From positions 1-15,952 of IMG/VR virus record IMGVR_UViG_2874920711_000013: a stretch of 15,952 nucleotides of DNA; one strand, 5' to 3'. The notes below the pieces were generated by a model. It did no database searches and had not been told where the DNA came from. It saw nothing but the letters and a program-made list of their open reading frames with translations. Positions 5,562 to 15,952 of this stretch are shown here, one piece after another (the first letter of the stretch is position 1; the number at the start of each line of letters is the position of its first letter). The DNA is from a virus. Its lineage: Duplodnaviria > Heunggongvirae > Uroviricota > Caudoviricetes. The translations under genes and the position numbers were made by a program.

Positions 5562-5730
5562 CAGATCGCACCAAAATTCGGCTCTACCTCGCGTGGTGGT
5601 AAAGTTTTATTGCAGGTAAATAGATCCCGGCTGACAATCGGTTTGCCACTACGATTGGTATAGAACGGAAGCCCGTTTTCCATTAACCATTTTCGCTGGT
5701 GGCTTGCATATTTGCAGCCCGTTAATATTA
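5561..5730 (-). pseudogene. xis: excisionase (Xis-like winged-helix protein) interrupted by an IS insertion; this is the 3' part, and the first 11 codons lie at 6647..6680
   Basis: Removing the IS (5731..6644) and one TA copy restores a 67-aa ORF MSSLFLTEDELLILTGCKYASHQRKWLMENGLPFYTNRSGKPIVSRDLF..., which fits the excisionase pattern (LTG...W...NG.PF....GKP.V.R). Its stop overlaps the int start. Confidence 0.6.
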
Positions 5731-6644
5731 GGCTGTGTCCCTTAATCATCTGAGCTATAGTAACTGTCTGTTTACACAACATATTGAACTATGGCTCGCT
5801 ACGACCTTCCCGATGAGGCATGGACCATCATCAAGCCCCTGTTACCTCCTGAACCCGCCACACCACGGGCCGGACGCCCATGGGCTGAGCACCGTAAAAT
5901 CATCAATGGCATGTTCTGGGTGTTATGTTCCGGTGCACCATGGCGCGATTTACCCGAACGATATGGGTCATGGAAAACTGTTTATAACCGCTTTAACCGA
6001 TGGTCAAAGTCAGGCGTGATTAATATTATTTTCAACAGGTTGCTTTCGCTACTTGATGCAAACGGCTTTATTGACTGGTCTGCCACCGCGCTGGATGGCA
6101 GTAATATCCGGGCGCTGAAATGTGCCGCCGGTGCTCAAAAAAACATCCCGATATCGACGGAGATAATGGGCTGGGTCGCTCTCGCGGCGGTTTTGGCACC
6201 AAAATCCATCTGGCAACAGACGGAAGTGGCCTCCCGTTAAATATCGTGCTAAGCCCGGACAAGCTCATGAAAGCCAGTTCGCGCAACGACTTCTGGACGG
6301 GATTGGCGTTCAGCGTCAGAACGGCAGCATGAAACGCCGTGGACATGCGGTACTGGCTGATAAAGCGTATTCAGGGCGCGCATTGCGCAACGAGCTGAAA
6401 AATAACGGTATAAAGGCAGTAATCCCCGAAAGTCAAATGAGAAAATGGCATCGGATGGACGTGCACAGCTTGATCGTGATGCGTACTGCAATCGTAATGT
6501 CGTTGAACGGTGCTTTGGGCGGCTGAAAGAATATCGCCGCATCGCCACGCGTTACGACAAAACGGCGAGAAATTACCTGGCGATGGTGAAACTGGGCTGC
6601 ATCCGACTCTTTTATCAACGCTTACGTAATTAAGGGACACAGCC
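5731..6644 (+). mobile_element. IS5-family (IS427-like group) insertion sequence, 914 bp, inserted in xis
   Basis: Perfect 16-bp terminal inverted repeats GGCTGTGTCCCTTAAT (5731-5746; reverse complement at 6629-6644) flanked by a TA direct duplication (5729-5730 and 6645-6646). The transposase begins MARYDLPDEAWTIIKPLLPP. Confidence 0.8.
5791..6633 (+). pseudogene. IS5-family transposase (OrfA/OrfB), reading frame broken at three homopolymer sites
   Basis: Conserved transposase segments lie in four successive frames (5791-6240, 6120-6332, 6329-6526, 6445-6633), including ADKAYSGRALRNELKNNGIKAVIPESQ and ERCFGRLKEYRRIATRYDKTARNYLAMV. Shifts are at the A7 run 6137-6143, CCCGG at 6254-6258 and AAA at 6435-6437; each is -1. 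The A7 site could be a natural programmed frameshift. Confidence 0.75.
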
Positions 6645-6738
6645 TAGCAATTCATCTTCGGTTAAAAATAAGCTGCTCATAGCTATATCTCATAACCGCC
6701 GCTAACTATATACGGTTAGCGGCAATTAGGGTTGAACA

Positions 6739-8010
6739 TTAAAAATCAGCCTGACTCGGGATCAGTTTTTGCCAGATAGCTGAAACGTATTTTGCCTGGT
6801 AACGAGCGTCATCAAGTGCATTATGGCGCTCACCTTCGAATGGAATAGCCGTTCTGGCATCGAAGTCTATGGCTTTCCCCAGCTCAACGATTGTGCGTAC
6901 ATCGCGATCGTTGTAGTAACGCCACGGGCAGGGGATCCCCTGCCGTTCGTATGAACGGCGCAAAATCGTGTTGTCGAAGTTGGCTCCATTTCCCCAGACC
7001 TGAACAAAAAATTCACCGGAGTTTTCGTCGATAAATTCCCGCAATTGTAACAGTGCATCATCTAACGGGATTTCATCGGTCATAATGGCAGATTGCGCTT
7101 CGCGTGATTGCTTAAGCCACCATTTAATGGTGTCCCGATCAATGACTCCGCCAGCAGTTTCCAGATCGATAGTCTTACTAAATTCGGGTCCCATATCTCC
7201 GGTTTGCGGATCGAAAAATATTGCACCTATTGAGATGATCGGGGCATCAGGATTTTTTCCCATGGTTTCAAGGTCGATCATTAGATGGTCACACGTCCTG
7301 CTGGTGGATGTGATTTCGTGATGACCATTCACCGTAATTAAGGGATCTGCCGTCTCGCCAGTTTTACTATCGCTGGCGTGGTCCTGAGCGCTGCCAGCAT
7401 TCTCCTTGTGTGGATGTTCAGCGCCTTCCATTTCCTCCGGATCATTTTCCTGAACTTCAACCTGATTCTCTTCATCGAATGTTTTCTGGTATGTTGCGTC
7501 GTCCATCACCGCGCCACAATCAGGGTAGTTGCCGCCACCGCTCTGACCGCAGGCGGTGCAGACTTTTTCCGGTTCCTGTTGCGCTACTGGTTCGGATTGT
7601 TTCGTTTCTGGCTCGTTTTGTAACGCATTTGGGCTGTTTTGTTCCGCTTTTTGGTCGTTCCGTTCCGATTCATGCTGGTTCTGGTTCACAGAATCGCGAG
7701 TCTGGATCCCCTTGACCCATTTCGGATCATTAGGGTCGCTAATCCCCTCAACAAATTCACCACGCGATACAGCAAGTAACTTATCGGCGTCAGGCTGGCT
7801 GATATTGGCTGCCTGCATAATTTTGTTTACTTCGTCAGCGGTGACTTTTACTTGGTTAGCGGAACTCACCTGCGACTGAGCATCCAGCGACTGCGCGTTC
7901 TGGCAATGTTCAGTTGTATCCGGTTCCATTGTTTCAGTTGTTGCCTGTTCACCTGCCATTGCGTCAGATGGTTGTGGTTTTTCTTCTTCTGTTTCACGCT
8001 CAGTAACCAC
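6739..8010 (-). CDS. prophage exonuclease: DnaQ-like DEDDh 3'-5' exonuclease domain after a long acidic low-complexity region; true 5' end uncertain
   Basis: C-terminal domain has the three DEDDh motifs: [21 protein letters not shown] and [14 protein letters not shown]. The listed start is a GTG with a poor ribosome-binding site. Coding-like sequence continues upstream in another frame (8045..8219) across an A5 run at 8038-8042. Confidence 0.75.
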
Positions 8011-8163
8011 CTCGCGGTTAATTTCTTCCAGGATATCTTTTTCCGGCGTATGCCGGGCAGCTGTGAGAGTTTCCTTGCTGGGTTCTCGTGATCAGTTTCT
8101 GTCAAATAGGCGTTGATATACCCCTGAAGGCGTCCCGGGTAGTGATAAAATTCAGGGGTGCGC

Positions 8164-9177
8164 TTAGGATAAGTGCAAAAATAGCGGCGCGGGAATAGTC
8201 CAGAATACCCGGGTTGCACGAAGTGCTGCGGACCATTCTTTGAACGGACTTTCTTTTTTCAGGACTACTTCTTTTGCGCGACGATAAACGCTGCCCGGAA
8301 TTTCATAAATATTAAAATCCATCGGAAGTGTGGCTGCTGCAATCTCCACATCCAGTGTGTCGAGGGTGTGTACTAAATTCGGATTGCGATCGGTTTTGTT
8401 CCCACCGCCAGCATTAGCACCGGAAGCCGTGCGGGTGATGCGTGAAACACGATTTCCTTTCATCCACTCTTTTGTCAGCAGACCCCGATCAGTGTAGTCA
8501 GCGTCCAGGTATGCTTCGAAAAAAGCAGTTATTAGTCCCAGGTCTGAATTACCAGGATTAGGGAAAACTTTGTCAGTGTCACGAACCAGTTTGTGGAGGT
8601 CGCGAATCTCCAGCGAGTCGAGCAGACTGGTTTTATGCGAAATAGCCAGGGCAGTAACAGCCGGTAGTTCTTCAGCCCGTGCAATGTGTAATGCCTGGAG
8701 TTCGTCGCGTGAAACGTGCGTTACTGGTTTTTCGCTGCCGTGTTGAGCAAGCCAACGAATGGGCAGTTCCTGACCGGAGACAGGTAGAAGCATGCTCTCC
8801 TCAATCTCAGTCATGTCTTCGCCGTTGATGTTGGTATTATCAGTGCTGGCTGATTTGTCCTGAACAGAGGGGGAAGGGCCGATAAATGTCATTGTGATGC
8901 CATCTTTCCCGCCTTTTTCATAGCGGTTGCAGAATTCAGTATCAAACACGCCTTCTGGCGGAAGGTCGTCAACAACGGGCAAATTGACGCGGACGGGTTT
9001 TTTAAAGTCGTCTTCATCATAATCGTTGTCATCCATTGCGGTAATGCAGCGGGAGATTGCAACAGATAATTTTTTTGCTGTAGTCCAGTAAAAACCACCT
9101 TTAATTCCTAGGCGTTTTCTTACTTTGACATTTTTTGCTTCGCAATATAGTGCAAATTCTTCTTTATCAGTGCTCAT
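8164..9177 (-). CDS. prophage protein of unknown function, 337 aa; possibly the N-terminal part of a larger exonuclease protein
   Basis: Long ORF with ATG at 9177. It occupies the ydfE-like position after ydfD in a Qin-type gene order. It is in the same frame as the exonuclease ORF. Confidence 0.6.
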
Positions 9178-9270: not shown

Positions 9271-9462
9271 TTAAAATCCTGCCGGGATTTCGTTATTATC
9301 CTGGTGAATAACTTTATCGACCGGATAACAGTTGCCTGGAATTTTCTGTTCGGTTGCTGCTGCCATACATTCCTGCATTGTTCTGTGAACACTGACTGCA
9401 ATATCAACTGGCTCTCCGGAAACAAGAAAAACCGTCAGAATAAGTGCAAATACTGGATTCAT
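9271..9462 (-). CDS. ydfD: YdfD-like small membrane/lysis protein, 63 aa
   Basis: MNPVFALILTVFLVSGEP... with a hydrophobic N-terminal segment. Its start overlaps the dicB stop (TCAT at 9459-9462). Length and position match Qin-prophage ydfD. Confidence 0.7.
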   Translation of the reverse strand: MNPVFALILTVFLVSGEPVDIAVSVHRTMQECMAAATEQKIPGNCYPVDKVIHQDNNEIPAGF

Positions 9463-9647
9463 TGTGCACATCCTTTTGGCATCAGACGTAAACGGGCCAG
9501 CATTGAAACAATGCATACTTTATTTAATAACTCCCGTTCGTGTTTTCTTTTGTTAATGGCCTCTTCAGTAAATACAGGATTACTGATAGTGACACCAATT
9601 TCAAAACAACCTTCAGACGTATTAACGTTTGGTAATAACGTTTTCAT
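9459..9647 (-). CDS. dicB: DicB cell-division inhibitor, 62 aa
   Basis: MKTLLPNVNTSEGCFEIGVTISNPVFTEEAINKRKHERELLNKVCIVSMLARLRLMPKGCAQ. GAGGG ribosome-binding site 8 nt upstream of the ATG at 9647. It lies directly downstream of DicF. Confidence 0.85.
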   Translation of the reverse strand: MKTLLPNVNTSEGCFEIGVTISNPVFTEEAINKRKHERELLNKVCIVSMLARLRLMPKGCAQ

Positions 9648-9820
9648 TATCGCGCCCTCAACAATGAGTTTTGTGATGCGGTGCCTGGTGCCTCCAGGTG
9701 ACGTTAACCAGTTAACAATTAACGCCGGATACAGAGAATCCACCCATAACACTGTTTTTGGTTTTAACTGTTCCGCGTGCGCTTAGCCGCATTCACCGCA
9801 TCACAAAATTCACTTTAAAA

Positions 9821-9873
9821 AGGGCGGCAGAGCAGTCACGGAGTAAAACTGATACCGCCAAACGTCACCAGAA
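9821..9873 (-). ncRNA. dicF: DicF small regulatory RNA (Hfq-dependent antisense RNA, ftsZ inhibitor)
   Basis: Minus-strand sequence TTTCTGGTGACGTTTGGCGGTATCAGTTTTACTCCGTGACTGCTCTGCCGCCC followed by a T-run (9816-9820). The terminator hairpin is GGCGG...CCGCC. Identification is from my recollection of the DicF sequence. Confidence 0.8.
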
Positions 9874-10215
9874 AATTGATAACAGAGGGCGTTGCAGCGG
9901 GGTTGTCACTTAAGCGTATGGTCAACCTGACAACCCGGTGTCCTCAACGGGGGAAGGAATAACCCCGCCATACTTACCGCCGCGCCATTTCGCGGATTGC
10001 CACAACCGGAAGCGCACGGTCGACGAAAATTTAACGACAGGCTATCTATGAACCAGCTACCTCGCCGTGCGCTTTCGCGTTATGGTCTGACTTTTCAGGG
10101 AAATATCCTTTCAGTAAACTGTCAGTGCCGGATGCTCACCCGTGTCCGGCGCACGCACTCCACCTCACCCGTGGAGAACTCCTTAATTACTAACCTTAGC
10201 TTTGTTGATTAGCTA

Positions 10216-10434
10216 CTAACGCGGGTATGTAATCATTCTGGCAATGCTTAATGCCGCTGCTTTTTCCAGATTGGTGATATCCTGCTCCAGAGCGGACAGA
10301 TTTTCAGCCTGCTTAGCCCTGGCTTCATTAGCCCATTTCAGATCCTGCGCTGCATTAATTTTCTGGCGCATCCACTCATAAAGTTCATCATCGGTATAGT
10401 CTGGCGCGATGATGACGGGTTCTCGTTTCTGCAC
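10216..10434 (-). CDS. ydfC: YdfC-like prophage protein, 72 aa (GTG start)
   Basis: GTG start at 10434 preceded by GAGGA 6 nt upstream. Size and position match Qin-prophage ydfC. Confidence 0.7.
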   Translation of the reverse strand: MQKREPVIIAPDYTDDELYEWMRQKINAAQDLKWANEARAKQAENLSALEQDITNLEKAAALSIARMITYPR

Positions 10435-10463
10435 GCTGATTCCTCGCGGTGCTGTTTCGCTTA

Positions 10464-10592
10464 TCAGCCGTTAGATTTTGCCGAACTGGAAAGCGCCTGT
10501 TTAAATTCGCTGAAGCTGAGAGCTTCTTCGCCTTCGGCAAGGCCTTCGAAGTATTCTTCGTAAGCCTTTTCCATGATTGTGTCGAAATCCAT
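10464..10592 (-). CDS. ydfB: YdfB-like small acidic protein, 42 aa (shorter than the 60-aa cutoff of the ORF track)
   Basis: Found by hand: ATG at 10592 with AGGTGG 7 nt upstream, encoding MDFDTIMEKAYEEYFEGLAEGEEALSFSEFKQALSSSAKSNG. It is tightly packed after ydfA (stop 10594-10596). Confidence 0.65.
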   Translation of the reverse strand: MDFDTIMEKAYEEYFEGLAEGEEALSFSEFKQALSSSAKSNG

Positions 10593-10593
10593 A

Positions 10594-10749
10594 TCACCCA
10601 CCTGAATTTCTTTCCAGCCAGCGACGCGCTCCAGATTCGGTTTTAAACGTTTTGCTTTTGGTATACGTCATTGCGGTGAAGGTGCCGTCCTGGTTGGGAA
10701 ACACGCCGTACACCAGAGATTCGTTGTTGCCAAGATCGATAGTATCCAT
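10594..10749 (-). CDS. ydfA: YdfA-like small protein, 51 aa
   Basis: ATG at 10749 with GAGG 7 nt upstream, encoding MDTIDLGNNESLVYGVFPNQDGTFTAMTYTKSKTFKTESGARRWLERNSGG. The longer track ORF (to 10872) reads into the IS66 end and is not native. Confidence 0.7.
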   Translation of the reverse strand: MDTIDLGNNESLVYGVFPNQDGTFTAMTYTKSKTFKTESGARRWLERNSGG

Positions 10750-10893
10750 GCTGACCTCATTTCCCCTTAACGCCGGGGTAGCGGAACAAAAACCTGCTGC
10801 ATAGTTATTAAGTAAGCGCCCCATCAGCGACGTCTTGTGAAAATTGTCCTGTCTGGCAACAATCGCGCCCATCTATATTGATGGACACGAACG

Positions 10894-11568
10894 ATGAATT
10901 CCCAGACAACAAAAGATATTCCCTGCTTCCGTTCTTATTTGCCTGATGCCCTGCGTTTAAGATTTGAAGATAAACTGACCATCCGGGCCATCGCTCAGCG
11001 TCTGGGTCTCAGTCATTCCACAATACATACGCTTTTTCAGCGATTTCTTGCATCCGGTATCGCATGGCCATTGCCCGATTCAGTTTCATTCGCTCAACTT
11101 GACGCCATCCTTTATGCCAACAGAAAGAAGGAATTAACAGAGCCTCAAATCAGAGAAGGCTCATGGCGAAAAGAACGGCGAACCAGCTATAGCCGTGAAT
11201 TTAAGGCCCGTCTGGCTAAGCAGGCGTTACAGCCTGGGGCTGTTGTTGCCCGGATCGCCAGAGAACACGATATCAATGATAACCTGCTGTTTAAATGGAA
11301 AAGCCAGTACGAGGACGGCTTACTGAGCGATGATGACATACAGGAATGCATGCCTGTCCCGGTGGCACTGACTGATACGCCGGAGCCGACCAGACCAGTT
11401 ACAAATCCCTTCTGGCGTAACAAGCATGATGAGCGCCCTGAGGGGGCTCCCGGAAACGTCCCACGGTGCGAGCTGCATCTTAAATCAGGTGTGGTAAAAC
11501 TGTTTGACCCTCTCACTCCGGAACTGTTACGGGCGCTAATCCGCGAAATGAAAGGGGGTATCCGATGA
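10894..11568 (+). CDS. IS66-family accessory protein OrfA (helix-turn-helix), 224 aa
   Basis: C-terminal half (RRTSYSREFKARLAKQALQPGAVVARIAREHDINDNLLFKWKSQYEDG) matches the IS66/IS3-type OrfA pattern. ATGA overlap with the next gene at 11565-11568. Confidence 0.7.
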   Translation: MNSQTTKDIPCFRSYLPDALRLRFEDKLTIRAIAQRLGLSHSTIHTLFQRFLASGIAWPLPDSVSFAQLDAILYANRKKELTEPQIREGSWRKERRTSYSREFKARLAKQALQPGAVVARIAREHDINDNLLFKWKSQYEDGLLSDDDIQECMPVPVALTDTPEPTRPVTNPFWRNKHDERPEGAPGNVPRCELHLKSGVVKLFDPLTPELLRALIREMKGGIR

Positions 11569-11912
11569 TAACGCTGCCGACCGGTACCAGAATCTGGATC
11601 ATCGCTGGCATCACAGATATGCGTTGTGGCTTCAATGGCCTGGCTTCGAAGGTGCAGAACACGCTGAAAGATGACCCGTTCTCCGGGCATATCTTCGTCT
11701 TCCGGGGCCGCAGTGGCAAAATGGTGAAAATACTGTGGGCCGATCGTGACGGGTTATGCCTGTTCGCCAAACGCCTGGAACGGGGCCGCTTCGTCTGGCC
11801 GGTGACCCGGGAAGGGAAAGTGCACCTGACGCCAGCTCAGTTATCCATGCTACTGGAGGGGATCGCGTGGCAACATCCCAAACGGACAGAACGGCCTGGC
11901 ATCCGGATATAA
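11565..11912 (+). CDS. IS66-family TnpB (Orf2), 115 aa
   Basis: MITLPTGTRIWIIAGITDMRCGFNGLASKVQ...KMVKILWADRDGLCLFAKRLERGRFVWP is the characteristic IS66 Orf2 sequence. Confidence 0.85.
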   Translation: MITLPTGTRIWIIAGITDMRCGFNGLASKVQNTLKDDPFSGHIFVFRGRSGKMVKILWADRDGLCLFAKRLERGRFVWPVTREGKVHLTPAQLSMLLEGIAWQHPKRTERPGIRI

Positions 11913-11931
11913 CCCGTGATAAAACAAGGGA

Positions 11932-13487
11932 ATGAACAATGAACTCCCCGATGATATTGAGCTGCTTAAAGCCATGTTGCGTAAGCAACAGAGTCGGCTT
12001 CGACAGTATGCCTGTCAGGTCGCGGGCTATGAGCAGGAAATTGAACGGCTGAAAGCGCAACTCGACAGGTTGCGTCGTATGTTGTTCGGCCAGAGTTCAG
12101 AGAAAAAGCGTCATAAGCTTGAAAATCAGATCCGACAGGCAGAAAAACGACTGTCGGAACTGGAAAACCGGCTGAACACAGCCAGAAATCTTCTGGAAGA
12201 TGCATCGTCAGTCACAGATTCACCTGACACCAGTCCCCCGTCAGAAAACCCGATCGCCAGTAAGCCTGAATCCCCGGGAGACACATCGCCTTCTGCCTGC
12301 TGAAACCAGTTGCCCGGCCTGTGGAGGTGTTCTGAAAGAAATGGGGAAACAATCTCAGAGCAACTGGATATCATTAATACCGCCTTTAAAGTTATCGAAA
12401 CCATACGTCCCAAACTGGCCTGTAGCCGGTGTGATGTCATCGTTCAGGCACCACTTCCCCTAAACCGATCGAACGCGGTTATGCCAGTGCAGGGTTACTT
12501 GCACGGATCCTGGTCAGCAAATATATGGAACATATCCCTTTATATCGCCAGTCAGAAATATACGCGCGACAGGGCGTGGAGCTGAGCCGTAATACCATGG
12601 TGCGCTGGGTATCAGAAATGGCAGACAAACTCCGTCCTCTGTATATAGCGCTGAATGACTATGTTCTGGAGGCAGGAAAGGTGCACGCAGATGACACTCC
12701 GGTGAAAGTACTGGCCCCGGGGAACGGAAAGACGAAAACGGGTCGTCTGTGGGTATACGTCAGGGATGATCGTAATGCGGGTTCATCCCTGCCGGCAGCC
12801 GTCTGGTTCGCGTATTCGGCAGATCGCAAAGGAGAACATCCGCAGCTCCACCTGGCAAAGTATCAGGGCGTACTGCAGGCTGATGCCTATGCAGGTTATA
12901 ACGTACTGTACGAAACGGGCCGGGTGAAGGAAGCCGGGTGCCTGGCCCACGCCCGCCGAAAAATCCATGACGAGGATGTGCGCCGTCCGACAGAAATGAC
13001 TCAGGAAGCGCTCAGACGGATAGCAGAGTTATACGACATAGAAGCGGAGATACGTGGCAGTCCGGCAGAGGAACGGCTTGCAGTCAGAAAAGCCAGAAGC
13101 GTCCAGTTGATGCAGTCGTTGTACGACTGGATACAGTTGCAGAGGAAAACGCTGTCGAAATATGCGGAGATGGCGAAGGCGTTCGACTATATCCTGAATC
13201 ACTGGAATGCGCTGAACGAGTTCTGTCGTGACGGCTGGGTGGAAATAGACAACAACATCGGTGAAAACGCGTTACGATCGGTGGCGGTTGGAAGAAAAAA
13301 TTATCTCTTTTTCGGCTCAGACAAGGGAGGAGAAAGTGCGGCGATCATCTACAGTCTGCTGGTCACCTGCAAACAGAACGAAGTGGAGCCGGAGGACTGG
13401 TTGCGCGAAGTGATCGAGAAGCTCAATGACTGGCCGTCGAACCAAGTGCATGAACTGCTGCCCTGGAACTTCTCGTCTGTAAAATAA
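11932..13487 (+). pseudogene. IS66-family transposase TnpC, broken by four single-base frameshifts
   Basis: N-terminal coiled coil (11932-12303), CxxC segment LPAETSCPACGG (frame of 12200-12463), SEQLDII...[16 protein letters not shown] (frame of 12310-12585) and the DDE domain LYRQSEIY...HADDTPV...[10 protein letters not shown] (12525-13487) lie in different frames. Shift sites are GGG 12276-12278, CC/TT near 12289-12292, GGGG 12343-12346 and CCCC 12457-12460. Confidence 0.85.
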
Positions 13488-13639
13488 TCCTTACGCTACG
13501 TACTTCTCGGGGCGCTTACGTTATTAAAGTTGAACCCTGCCGTCATGTTCTTACGCCTCGGGCTGGCTACTTAACCCCTGACCACTGCCTGGTAACTCGA
13601 AGTATTGCCCTGCATTCTGTGGGCGGGGTGGGTGGCAGG

Positions 13640-13690
13640 CATATAATGTACTTTGCGTTCATTGTTGTAAAGTACTTTTAGTACATTTTG
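13640..13690 (-). promoter_or_regulatory. candidate leftward early promoter (pL-like) with flanking operator half-sites
   Basis: On the minus strand: -35 TTTACA (13666-13671), 17-bp spacer, -10 CATTAT (13643-13648). The heptamer ATGTACT or its complement occurs at 13647-13653 and 13680-13686, with palindromic AGTACT at 13671-13676. Confidence 0.4.
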
Positions 13691-13761
13691 TGTGTAAAAA
13701 AATGAGATGGGATAAAGTGAAGCACAAACCCGGAGGAAGGCGCTACCGGATTTATGCTGGT

Positions 13762-14181
13762 TTAAGAGGCTTTTTGTTTTTTCTTTCGTGCTAACTCTTC
13801 GTAAATTGCATTGTACTTCTGTTTTTTCTCTTCAAGAGTTTTTAAAAGTTCATCTGTCTCACTGTCAGGGAGCTCGTCCAGAAGGTCAATGATGATTTTT
13901 TGTCTTGGATTTAACTCCTGATAGAAACGTACCTGTCCACTTTCTTCTGTATCCTCTCCCAAAAGATAGGTTGGTGTTGTTCCTATTAGTGTTGCTAATT
14001 CCCTTAATTTCTCCCGGCGAGGAATTGTTTCGCCATTAAACCATTTGCTAACCGCTTTTGGTGTTAATTTCATTCGACGGGCAATTTCTGCCTGCCTTCC
14101 ATGTTGTTCATAACCAGCGTTTTCACAGGCTAGCGCAAGCCTACTGGCGAACTCTTTACGCGCTTTATCTTCATGAACCAT
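13762..14181 (-). CDS. dicA: prophage repressor, DicA/RacR-like (N-terminal XRE-type helix-turn-helix, no peptidase domain), 139 aa
   Basis: Helix-turn-helix region FASRLALACENAGYEQHGRQAEIARRMKLTPKAVSKWFNGETIP with a charged C-terminal tail. It is divergent from the Cro-like gene and, once IS66 is removed, lies directly upstream of ydfA-ydfB-ydfC-dicF-dicB. The dicA name is by synteny only. Confidence 0.75.
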   Translation of the reverse strand: MVHEDKARKEFASRLALACENAGYEQHGRQAEIARRMKLTPKAVSKWFNGETIPRREKLRELATLIGTTPTYLLGEDTEESGQVRFYQELNPRQKIIIDLLDELPDSETDELLKTLEEKKQKYNAIYEELARKKKQKAS

Positions 14182-14260
14182 AAGTTCAATGATATTCGCT
14201 CTTGAATGTACTGTCAGTTCTGTTATAGCATGTACTCAAAGTTCACATTGTGAGGGTGAT
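14182..14260. promoter_or_regulatory. divergent immunity control region (back-to-back pRM-like and pR-like promoters with operators)
   Basis: Leftward: -35 CTGACA (14212-14217), 17-bp spacer, -10 TATCAT (14189-14194), 7 nt before the repressor ATG, implying a leaderless transcript. Rightward: -35 TTGAAT (14202-14207), -10 near 14224-14229, GAGGGTG ribosome-binding site at 14253-14259. ATGTACT heptamers at 14206-14212 and 14230-14236. Confidence 0.5.
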
Positions 14261-14515
14261 ATGAACCAGAAAACACTTGAAGATGTAATCAAAACTGTTC
14301 GCGTTGCTGTTGTGGCCGACGTTTGTGGTGTCAGCCAAAGAGCAATCTATAAATGGATGGATAACGGAAAATTGCCTCGCACAGAATATACCGGCGAAAC
14401 AAATTACGCTGAAAAAATCGCTCTTGCATCAAACGGATTATTTTCTGCCGATGCAATTTTAACTATTGGCAGGAATAAAACTACTACGAAAAAGCTGATG
14501 GGAGTTGATTCATGA
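14261..14515 (+). CDS. Cro-like / YdaS-like helix-turn-helix protein, 84 aa
   Basis: ATG at 14261 with ribosome-binding site; helix-turn-helix segment VADVCGVSQRAIYKWMDNGKLP. Divergent from the repressor and translationally coupled to the next gene (ATGA at 14512-14515). Confidence 0.7.
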   Translation: MNQKTLEDVIKTVRVAVVADVCGVSQRAIYKWMDNGKLPRTEYTGETNYAEKIALASNGLFSADAILTIGRNKTTTKKLMGVDS

Positions 14516-14838
14516 AAATCAAGCATGAACACATCCGCATGGCGATGAATGCCTGGGCGCATCCGGACGGCGAAAAAGTACCGGCTGCGAAAATTACCAA
14601 AGCGTATTTCGAGCTGGGAATGACGTTCCCGGAACTGTATGACGACAGCCATCCGGAAGCCCTGGCTCGCAATACTCAGAAAATTTTCCGCTGGGTGGAG
14701 AAAGACACCCCTGATGCGGTTAAAAAAATTCAGGCGTTGTTACCAGCTATCGAAAAAGCAATGCCACCTCTGCTGGTGGCCCGAATGCGCAGTCATAGCT
14801 CAGCCTATTTTCGGGAACTAAATAGCTGCGCGGAATAG
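14512..14838 (+). CDS. YdaT-like protein, 108 aa
   Basis: N-terminus MKIKHEHI matches what I recall of Rac-prophage YdaT. The stop codon TAG (14836-14838) lies 2 bp before the IS630 left end. Confidence 0.6.
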   Translation: MKIKHEHIRMAMNAWAHPDGEKVPAAKITKAYFELGMTFPELYDDSHPEALARNTQKIFRWVEKDTPDAVKKIQALLPAIEKAMPPLLVARMRSHSSAYFRELNSCAE

Positions 14839-14840
14839 TA

Positions 14841-15952
14841 GATCACTTTGAGGGAACTTAGCCCGGATTGTGCGATCTGATCAATCGCCAAATCAAAACA
14901 AATCACCAACCGGACTGAGCAATGCCGATCATAGCACCAATTTCCCGTGACGAACGACGCCTGATGCAGAAAGCCATCCATAAAACACACGATAAAAATT
15001 ATGCCCGCAGACTGACTGCCATGCTGATGCTGCACCGGGCGACCGTGTCAGCGACGTTGCCAGAACGCTCTGCTGCGCCCGTTCCTCTGTTGGACGCTGG
15101 ATTAACTGGTTCACGCAGTCGGGTGTTGAGGGACTGAAATCATTACCTGCCGGGCGTGCCCGTCGCTGGCCGTTTGAGCATATCTGCACACTGTTACGTG
15201 AGCTGGTAAAACATTCTCCCGGCGACTTTGGCTACCAGCGTTCACGCTGGAGTACAGAACTGCTGGCAATAAAAATCAATGAGATAACCGGTTGCCAGTT
15301 AAATGCCGGAACCGTTCGCCGCTGGTTGCCGTCTGCGGGGATTGTGTGGCGAAGGGCTGCGCCAACTCTGCGTATCCGTGACCCGTATAAAGATGAAAAG
15401 ATGGCAGCAATCCATAAAGCACTGGACGAATGCAGCGCAGAGCATCCGGTCTTTTATGAAGATGAAGTGGATATCCATCTTCATCCCAAAATCGGTGCGG
15501 ACTGGCAACTGCGCGGACAGCAAAAACGGGTGGTCACGCCGGGACAGAATGAAAAATATTATCTGGCCGGAGCGCTGCACAGCGGGACAGGTAAAGTCAG
15601 CTATGTGGGCGGCAACAGCAAAAGTTCGGCGCTGTTCATCAGCCTGCTGAAGCGGCTTAAAGCGACATACCGTCGGGCGAAAACCATCACGCTGATCGTG
15701 GACAACTACATTATCCACAAAAGCCGGGAAACACAGAGCTGGCTGAAGGAGAACCCGAAGTTCAGGGTCATTTATCAGCCGGTTTACTCGCCATGGGTGA
15801 ATCATGTTGAACGGCTATGGCAGGCACTTCACGACACAATAACGCGTAATCATCAGTGCCGCTCAATGTGGCAACTGTTGAAAAAAGTTCGCCATTTTAT
15901 GGAAACCGTCAGCCCATTCCCCGGAGGCAAACATGGACTGGCAAAAGTGTAG
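14841..15952 (+). mobile_element. IS630 (Tc1/mariner-like insertion sequence), partial; right end beyond the window
   Basis: The transposase matches my recollection of IS630 (MPIIAPISRDERRLMQKAIHKTHDKNYARRLTAML...HGLAKV). The left boundary is estimated (within about 5 bp) from the TA dinucleotide at 14839-14840. Confidence 0.8.
14922..15952 (+). pseudogene. IS630 transposase with a single-base frameshift
   Basis: N-terminal 40 aa are in one frame and the rest (..ELVKHSPGDFGYQRSRWSTELL...MPSAGIVWRRAAP...) in the -1 frame. Restoring one G in the GGG run at 15037-15039 gives a continuous reading frame. Confidence 0.85.

Follow-up and report, generated by a model that had tools for sequence, protein, structure and literature searches.

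A defective ISSfl3 element in a prophage leader probably cuts an intact dicB operon off from its sole known promoter

We examined a window of 15,952 nucleotides (the whole stretch of DNA that was analysed) bearing a lambdoid prophage inserted at a tRNA-Ser gene next to mtfA. The minus strand of this prophage carries an operon for a toxic cell-division inhibitor, of the dicBF type known from the cryptic Qin prophage of E. coli K-12, whose members are listed here in the order of transcription:

10594–10749, minus strand: ydfA, 51 aa, intact, the first annotated gene of the operon, identical to YdfA of E. coli MLI114
10464–10592, minus strand: ydfB, 42 aa, intact
10216–10434, minus strand: ydfC, 72 aa, intact
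9822–9873, minus strand: dicF small RNA (Rfam RF00039, 76.7 bits against a gathering score of 48)
9459–9647, minus strand: dicB, 62 aa, intact, 59 of 62 residues identical to K-12 DicB
9271–9462, minus strand: ydfD-like gene, 63 aa, DUF1482, intact

The Qin-type gene set and order (ydfA-ydfB-ydfC-dicF-dicB-ydfD) are both present, and homology to K-12 Qin, which breaks off 38 bp upstream of the ydfA ATG, runs at 96.7% DNA identity from there onward. The dicF RNA equals that of K-12 over all 52 nt, and positions 9271–10811 show zero differences from E. coli MLI114. At the gathering threshold Rfam returned DicF and two tRNAs and nothing else. A neighbouring exonuclease gene bears three frameshifts, against zero differences in the operon, a disparity without statistical weight.

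Upstream of ydfA lies a known Shigella insertion element, which comprises the following features together with the repeats that border it:

10804–10811, no strand: left copy of the target-site duplication, octamer GTTATTAA
10812–10822, no strand: core of the left terminal inverted repeat, GTAAGCGCCCC
10812–13519, plus strand: ISSfl3 (IS66 family), 2708 bp, a defective copy of a 2754-bp element, delimited by alignment and shared termini
10894–11568, plus strand: tnpA, 224 aa, intact (NF038385, 283.8 bits against a cut-off of 150)
11565–11912, plus strand: tnpB, 115 aa, intact (NF033819, 125.6 bits against a cut-off of 50)
11932–13487, plus strand: tnpC transposase pseudogene (NF033517, 350.3 bits for the C-terminal piece against a cut-off of 180)
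13509–13519, no strand: core of the right terminal inverted repeat, GGGGCGCTTAC
13520–13527, no strand: right copy of the target-site duplication, octamer GTTATTAA

A preliminary description had placed this element in the IS66 family, and all three tnp genes indeed score above the curated NCBIfam cut-offs. IS66-family ends begin GTAAGCG, and IS679, reportedly treated by Han et al. in 2001 and Gourbeyre et al. in 2010, is one such element. The window copy shares with ISSfl3 and IS679 the tnpA-tnpB-tnpC order, the overlap of the tnpB start with the tnpA stop in ATGA (11565–11568), the GTAAGCG termini and an 8-bp duplication, and over its full length it is 99.5–99.8% identical to copies that NCBI annotates as 'IS66-like element ISSfl3 family'. 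Literature searches on ISSfl3 and on the genomes that carry the junction returned nothing relevant. The window copy falls 46 bp short of the intact 2754-bp element, and three lesions break its transposase gene. We read these lesions from an alignment with an intact ISSfl3 copy in E. coli FDAARGOS_943 (L002), an independent copy with identical termini and its own 8-bp duplication (GGGAAGTC). Relative to the intact 533-aa gene, tnpC has lost 44 bp after 12270 and single bases at 12342 and 12456, splitting the frame into pieces of 123, 87, 91 and 320 aa. With no intact DDE transposase TnpC in this copy, the element is a defective, non-autonomous family member that moves only with TnpC supplied by another copy.

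Both octamers directly adjoin the IS termini, which match each other as inverted repeats at 11 of 11 positions, with a looser likeness further inward; the chance of matching one specified 8-mer is about 1 in 65,536. We reconstructed the empty site by joining 600 bp of left flank, one octamer copy and the right flank. This sequence gave a one-piece, full-span match to E. coli chromosomes at 99.8% identity, and at least 80% of it was covered in 134 E. coli genomes. In two E. coli prophages, those of PCN061 (L001, 11593–11600) and MLI114 (L003, 10940–10947), the two window flanks overlap by exactly 8 bp, and the octamer was therefore single before the insertion. The repeat had been proposed to be a duplication, with the uninterrupted repressor-ydfA junction as the comparison to make; these E. 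coli junctions match and carry the octamer once, confirming that the ISSfl3 insertion is real and that the 8-bp repeat arose by target duplication. The geometry given beforehand was likewise accurate. With the ydfA ATG at 10749, the distance to the IS end is 62 nt, or 54 nt without the duplication (about 55 bp had been claimed), and removal of the IS leaves 296 bp between the repressor stop codon and the ydfA ATG (about 300 bp had been claimed).

On the far side of the element, where the preliminary description had placed the promoter and its operators, we found a promoter-like site and two operator-like repeats, along with the genes expected to control them:

13528–13633, minus strand: conserved 5′ leader block, still joined to the promoter and now parted from ydfA
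13643–13671, minus strand: candidate pL-like leftward early promoter, TTTACA-17-CATTAT, from a promoter scan
13648–13660 and 13672–13684, no strand: two operator-like sites, GTACT-N4-GTWC, 24 bp apart, overlapping the promoter
13762–14181, minus strand: prophage repressor, 139 aa, helix-turn-helix (HTH), intact, identical to the E. coli MLI114 protein
14208–14220 and 14232–14244, no strand: second operator-like pair, 24 bp apart, between the repressor and cro-like genes
14261–14515, plus strand: cro-like HTH regulator, 84 aa, divergent from the repressor

The candidate promoter matches the consensus at 9 of 12 positions and is supported by its position; transcription from it would begin near 13636, leaving about 117 nt to the IS. 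The promoters that go with four other immunity types (e.g. TTGACA-17-TATAGT) end equally far from the same leader. The motif GTACT-N4-GTWC has six matches in the window against 0.08 expected, a ratio to be read with the fact that the pattern was derived from these very sites, and four of the six form two pairs, each spaced by the same 24 bp. A repressor gene and a cro-like gene in divergent orientation, with one motif at both the rightward and the leftward promoter, make up a lambdoid immunity layout; the leftward promoter is putatively under repressor control through these operator-like sites. As in K-12 Qin, the repressor gene lies directly upstream of the operon and the promoter lies between repressor and ydfA. 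The immunity region, however, differs from that of Qin, which is controlled by DicA and DicC. We rejected an identification of the window repressor as DicA (NF007257, 56.8 bits against a cut-off of 101); it is a distant relative, and its operators differ from the K-12 Oc sequence, TTGTTAGTCATAACTAACAA (PMC3441716). Repression by DicA at dicBp does not apply to this locus, where the arrangement is analogous but heteroimmune. The window also differs from Qin in its attachment site, in its interrupted leader and in its intergenic region, which without the IS measures 296 bp and contains the leader block, whereas the 166-bp region of Qin lacks it.

The leader block is found downstream of heteroimmune repressors, including those of Rac-type prophages, and of the E. 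coli genomes that gave any match (3699), some matched in the leader alone, over roughly the first 106 bp of the query. A ~105-nt leader common to heteroimmune Rac- and Qin-like prophages pins the start of early-leftward transcripts and, although a by-product here, may be of more use than the IS finding. Its folding stability showed no excess over shuffled sequences (z = +1.1). An alifold alignment gave a covariation term of +0.76 with only 2 compensatory pairs, several pairs breaking in the most divergent copy, and a search of 13400–14300 against Rfam at E-values up to 1 gave no match. We rejected, as unsupported, the idea that the leader acts as a put- or nut-like antitermination RNA.

The element is not simply placed between promoter and gene: it interrupts a short upstream reading frame in the transcribed leader. 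Its genes are on the plus strand and the dicB operon is on the minus strand, which upholds the earlier statement that leftward transcription crosses the IS antisense. Classical polar insertions of this kind are those of IS1 and IS2 in the leaders of gal and lac. By analogy with these, where the IS also lies between promoter and first gene in an untranslated orientation, Rho-dependent polarity would be expected here, the difference being that the target is a toxic prophage operon and not a metabolic one. In K-12, the sole promoter found for the dicBF operon is dicBp, upstream of ydfA (PMC10448788), and although K-12 Qin is heteroimmune to this prophage, the insertion most likely cuts an intact operon off from its only known promoter.

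We propose that transposition carried ISSfl3 into the transcribed leader of the leftward early operon, duplicating GTTATTAA, and that 2.7 kb of antisense, untranslated IS sequence would since have parted the promoter and operators from ydfABC-dicF-dicB-ydfD. Most transcripts initiated at the promoter would stop within the IS, where the untranslated RNA would be subject to Rho-dependent polarity. Past the point of entry into the IS, the antisense RNA has a C/G ratio of 1.6–1.8 over ~400 nt; being untranslated and C-rich, it appears suited to Rho termination. As summarised in PMC5793797 from Cardinale 2008 and Peters 2012, Rho and NusG silence both antisense RNA and toxic genes of prophages. The Rac kilR region offers a parallel, an early-leftward prophage operon for a cell-division inhibitor that carries the same conserved leader block and is silenced by termination as well as by repressor (PMC5793797). 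Silencing in Rac operates without an IS, whereas the element in the window would add 2.7 kb of termination-prone sequence. We therefore consider it likely that the leader insertion leaves the toxic dicF/dicB module largely silent, uncoupled from the repressor/cro switch and deaf to its state.

Termination across the element would rest on the putative action of Rho, so partial read-through is possible. Along the antisense path we found a single weak intrinsic-terminator-like hairpin (10990–10976), and the whole scan was no richer in such hairpins than shuffled sequence. If RNA polymerase crossed the IS in useful amounts, dicF and dicB would stay under repressor control behind a leader longer by 2.7 kb, with reduced output. 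The lack of a convincing intrinsic terminator on this strand would permit such crossing, and the conserved 105-nt leader stays with the promoter and would be transcribed ahead of the IS, where any antitermination role of the block would still act. However, that leader has neither an Rfam match nor excess folding stability nor convincing covariation, the stretch from promoter to operon contains no N-like or Q-like gene, and Rho typically acts on long antisense RNA that is C-rich and untranslated (PMC5793797). We judge persistent read-through to be unlikely.

For the preferred reading, a largely silent operon, the insertion would most simply count among the many IS expansions of a Shigella prophage in decay, with an effect that was neutral or, because a toxic operon was disarmed, mildly beneficial. 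A more adaptive version holds that the insertion was selected as a safety catch, uncoupling an intact dicF/dicB module from a functional bistable repressor/cro switch and placing it under Rho/NusG gating while the module itself was kept. In K-12, dicBp turns on spontaneously in ~1% of cells and is toxic when dicBF is present (PMC10448788). Under selection the cost of such spontaneous induction would be gone and the module would be retained for a different role, such as DicB-mediated exclusion of ManXYZ-dependent phages. Were uncoupling shown to be selected or recurrent, it would exemplify a way in which bacteria tame toxic genes of prophage origin. Such selection would agree with an operon that has zero differences beside an exonuclease gene that has three frameshifts, a contrast again without statistical weight, and we hold it to be quite improbable. 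The insertion, routine and probably polar, lies in a prophage remnant; it is an ordinary event for an IS-riddled Shigella genome and of small significance beyond the locus itself. It nevertheless provides a clean, datable case in which Shigella IS expansion dismantles a prophage regulatory circuit with both parts intact.

Outward promoters are known to arise from IS elements of several families, and the preliminary description had offered such a promoter as an alternative. If one faced outward at the left IS end, or a hybrid one had formed there, it would drive ydfA-dicF-dicB constitutively, free of the repressor. The operon is intact in all six carriers of the junction and survives in one of them (L006) despite unrelated DNA at the right IS end, as it might if transcription came from within the element. 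Operon integrity could hint at continued use, but divergence (~0.3%) is too low for this to be informative. The alternative found no support in our scans, also with thresholds relaxed: between 10740 and 11150 (the last 340 nt of the element on the antisense path, with the junction) no outward sigma-70-like site reached 8 of 12 matches, a general scan gave the same outcome, and no extended −10 motif faced outward at the left IS end. Constitutive expression of DicB or DicF is moreover toxic in K-12 (PMC10448788). Such a promoter is, in our estimate, very improbable, and a largely silent operon remains the preferred reading.

The junction, found through its chimeric 92-aa ORF, is carried by six assemblies, and the only organism name returned for the carriers was Shigella boydii. 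We found nothing to favour reading the junction as an error of assembly, or the octamer pair as a coincidence next to the remnant of some unrelated IS; both readings are already refuted by the presence of the junction in six independent assemblies (three on contigs >1 Mb), by exact ends and an 8-bp duplication that agree with the independent ISSfl3 copy, and by an empty site found in more than 100 E. coli genomes. No record spanned the junction in any of 5426 complete E. coli genomes, a collection of E. coli assemblies in which the search gave no Shigella record. An exact-match scan of species-representative genomes with the left junction (39 nt) gave zero matches, which is uninformative because that set holds one genome per species, presumably with no separate representative for Shigella. 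The insertion probably occurred in an ancestor of several Shigella strains; the IS copy would afterwards have lost its own transposase gene and become a substrate for further rearrangement. The prophage remnant bears three other IS elements. In L006 the unrelated DNA at the right IS end encodes a holin and TolA-domain genes, and in another carrier (L007) a second ISSfl3 is nested in the first.

The separation of a leftward early promoter from the dicB operon by an insertion element was examined by rebuilding the empty site (left flank, one octamer and right flank) and matching it against E. coli chromosomes. The element and its borders are laid out as follows:

10804-10811: left copy of the target octamer GTTATTAA, directly adjoining the IS end
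10812-13519, + strand: IS66-family ISSfl3 copy, 2708 bp, bounded by inverted ends
10812-10822: left IS end GTAAGCGCCCC, abutting the left octamer
10894-11568, + strand: tnpA (NF038385, 283.8 bits, cut-off 150)
11565-11912, + strand: tnpB (NF033819, 125.6 bits, cut-off 50), its start overlapping the end of tnpA in ATGA
11932-13487, + strand: tnpC, fragmented; its C-terminal piece (320 aa) matches the IS66 transposase model at 350 bits (cut-off 180)
13509-13519: right IS end GGGGCGCTTAC, exact inverse of the left end
13520-13527: right copy of the octamer GTTATTAA, directly adjoining the IS end

The rebuilt site was matched in one piece at 99.8% identity, and at least 134 genomes covered at least 80% of it. 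In the prophages of E. coli PCN061 and MLI114 the window flanks map next to each other, overlapping by exactly 8 bases, so that the octamer is single in both empty sites, as expected of the 8-bp duplication proposed in the preliminary description; the refuting outcome named there, a repeat that is no duplication, did not arise. The same termini bound an unrelated ISSfl3 copy, which is flanked by an 8-bp duplication of its own, GGGAAGTC. By these comparisons, ISSfl3 at 10812-13519 is a true insertion, the octamer having been duplicated from a single target. The proposed IS66-family assignment is borne out by the above-cut-off profile matches for all three tnp genes and by 99.5-99.8% identity between the 2708-bp element and copies annotated by NCBI as 'IS66-like element ISSfl3'; the E. 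coli strains with these copies also list IS600, IS630 and ISSfl7, insertion sequences typical of Shigella. Aligned with an intact 2754-bp ISSfl3, the window copy shows three deletions, one of 44 bp after 12270 and two of 1 bp at 12342 and 12456, all within tnpC. Because of these deletions, the window ISSfl3 is a defective copy, unable to make its own transposase.

The insertion created a chimeric ORF of 92 aa, which runs out of the IS end into ydfA (10594-10872, - strand). This exact protein is recorded in six assemblies, with Shigella boydii ATCC 9905 the sole organism name returned, and the window is 100% identical to CP026824.1; no junction-spanning record was found among the 5426 complete E. 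coli genomes searched. Carriers share the left junction and differ rightward of it, as three of them illustrate:

L008: simple insertion, as in the window
L006 (1270-1345): 44 bp of tnpC retained; unrelated phage DNA (holin, TolA-domain genes) abutting a variant right IS end
L007 (2190-2270): resident tnpC interrupted by a further ISSfl3, itself intact (equivalent of window 12637)

Since a common left junction is combined with different right sides, the insertion is judged to predate the divergence of the carrier strains, with an originally intact element that later decayed and seeded rearrangements. The variant right end and unrelated phage DNA of L006 indicate later recombination between IS copies.

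Both sides of the element retain the genes expected of the interrupted locus:

9271-9462, - strand: ydfD-like gene, intact
9459-9647, - strand: dicB, intact
9822-9873, - strand: dicF, intact (Rfam, 76.7 bits versus 48)
10216-10434, - strand: ydfC, intact
10464-10592, - strand: ydfB, intact
10594-10749, - strand: ydfA, intact
13528-13633, - strand: leader block CCACCCACCCCGCCCACAGAATGCAGGGCAATACTTCGAGTTACCAGGCAGTGGTCAGGGGTTAAGTAGCCAGCCCGAGGCGTAAGAACATGACGGCAGGG, ~105 nt, directly downstream of the pL-like promoter
13671-13643, - strand: pL-like promoter candidate TTTACA-17-CATTAT, from a promoter scan
13762-14181, - strand: HTH repressor, 139 aa, intact
14261-14515, + strand: cro-like gene, divergent from the repressor

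From 9271 to 10811 there are zero nucleotide differences from the uninterrupted MLI114 prophage. Every structural detail of the preliminary description was confirmed: the IS, placed just upstream of ydfA, ends 62 nt before its ATG; the repressor-to-ydfA span of ~300 bp expected without the IS measures 296 bp from stop codon to ATG; and the IS genes lie on the + strand, antisense to the leftward transcript. The early promoter and operators said to lie across the IS from the operon correspond to the pL-like site and two GTACT-N4-GTWC copies that overlap it at a 24-bp spacing. Another such pair, equally spaced, is found in the interval separating the repressor from the cro-like gene. Six matches occur in the window versus 0.08 expected, a descriptive count and no test, the pattern having been derived from these sites. 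Prophages with four other repressor types (RacR, LexA-family, another 139-aa protein, DicA-like) carry their own promoters, including TTGACA-17-TATAGT, TTGACT-17-TAAACT and TTTACT-17-TATCCT, equally far from the common downstream block, and this shared position independently supports the pL-like site. Given both lines of evidence, the leftward transcript most likely begins near 13636. It would run 117 nt to the right IS end, cross 2708 nt antisense and emerge 62 nt short of the ydfA ATG.

The immunity arrangement is by sequence analogous to the DicA system of the K-12 Qin prophage but heteroimmune: homology to Qin begins only 38 bp upstream of ydfA, the repressor scores below the DicA cut-off, and the K-12 Oc site differs from the window operator motif. 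A promoter-like CTGACA-17-TATCAT (14189-14217, - strand, 10/12 matches) overlaps an operator-like site at 14208-14220 and stops 7 nt short of the repressor ATG (14181); repressor mRNA from this candidate would be leaderless or nearly so, like the lambda cI mRNA from pRM. A perfect TATAAT (13642-13647, + strand) within the pL/operator region faces the repressor 3' end without an acceptable -35 or TG extension. In the right flank, three of the four differences from MLI114 (1 bp deleted at 13620, substitutions at 13636 and 13640) lie close together, in a 21-bp stretch shortly after the pL-like -10, 13636 being polymorphic among E. coli too; in L008, with positions noted at the equivalents of 13675 and 13573, an operator half-site is altered instead, from GTAC to GTGC. 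These changes may reflect decay of a disconnected promoter or chance, the numbers being too small to separate the two.

In K-12, the only promoter detected for dicBF lies upstream of ydfA, and processing of its long transcript yields DicF; the promoter fires spontaneously in ~1% of cells, and cells firing with an intact operon formed no colonies (PMC10448788). By analogy with this single promoter, 2.7 kb between promoter and operon should stop most expression, and the operon is probably substantially uncoupled from the pL-like promoter. Meaningful read-through across the IS, at least in part, would be helped by an antisense path with a single weak terminator-like hairpin, the whole terminator scan being no better than chance, but is unlikely in view of an antisense RNA that is untranslated and has a C/G ratio of 1.6-1.8 over the first ~400 nt inside the IS, C-rich RNA being preferred by Rho. 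An outward IS promoter driving the operon, the alternative offered in the preliminary description, is very improbable, as a scan that recovered the pL-like site as positive control showed no outward-facing sigma-70-like site, even with the threshold lowered to 8/12 matches, within the final 340 nt of the IS or spanning its junction. Together with the known silencing of prophage toxic genes and antisense transcripts by Rho and NusG (PMC5793797), the missing outward promoter and the untranslated, C-rich RNA favor substantial uncoupling. It is improbable that selection favored the insertion as a safety catch on a toxin module that is otherwise intact.

ISSfl3 is inserted inside the predicted transcribed leader. 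Many E. coli genomes of other immunity types give matches limited to the leader block, and the block is present in 12-15 deposited temperate phages, behind at least five repressor types (RacR, LexA-family, two 139-aa HTH proteins, DicA-like); it is absent from K-12 Qin. Of the first 22 nt of the block, 13 are C and 2 are G, and it gave no Rfam match, excess stability or convincing covariation. Candidate roles are a Rho entry site, a recombination linker or a small-ORF start. A conserved Shine-Dalgarno and ATG (GAGGCGTAAGAACATG; ATG at 13553-13551, - strand) open a short upstream ORF, which in Rac-type and LexA-type relatives is closed by the TAA of GGCGTTAAGGGG, 18-20 codons on; in prophages of the window type, 1 nt of difference brings this ORF into the ydfA frame (predicted product ~78 aa; some annotators call a 77-aa product). 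Two variable positions in codons 3-4 are both synonymous (GCA/GCG, GGG/GGA), and the ISSfl3 target octamer forms codons 7-9 of this putative frame. An E. coli-type leader block (76% identity) also occurs in phage vB_Apl-pPE4 (PP818812.1, 5092-7636), with a DicA-like repressor, a YdaT-family gene and a Kil gene; its deposited host, Actinobacillus pleuropneumoniae, is unexpected for this module.

Besides ISSfl3, the 16-kb window carries three further IS elements or remnants:

1-1199: IS91-family transposase pseudogene, split into two ORFs
~5730-6645: ISSfl7 (IS5 family), between a DUF4224 excisionase-like gene and the exonuclease gene; its flanks overlap by 3 bp in the empty site
14818-15952: IS630, which truncates the YdaT-family gene

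Beyond IS630 the source contig continues with genes for an MlrA-like regulator and a DUF1398 protein; it lacks there the replication genes found after the YdaT-family gene in intact relatives. The locus is what remains of a prophage decaying in a Shigella genome rich in IS elements, and the ISSfl3 insertion is one ordinary event among many, involving an already known element and, in polar IS insertion, a classical mechanism. The RecE-like exonuclease gene (6739-9177, - strand), intact and encoding 813 aa in MLI114, has here lost single bases at 8079, 8157 and 8210, which breaks it into two ORFs; the adjoining dicB operon has no differences, and the exonuclease gene is intact in carriers L007, L008 and L010.
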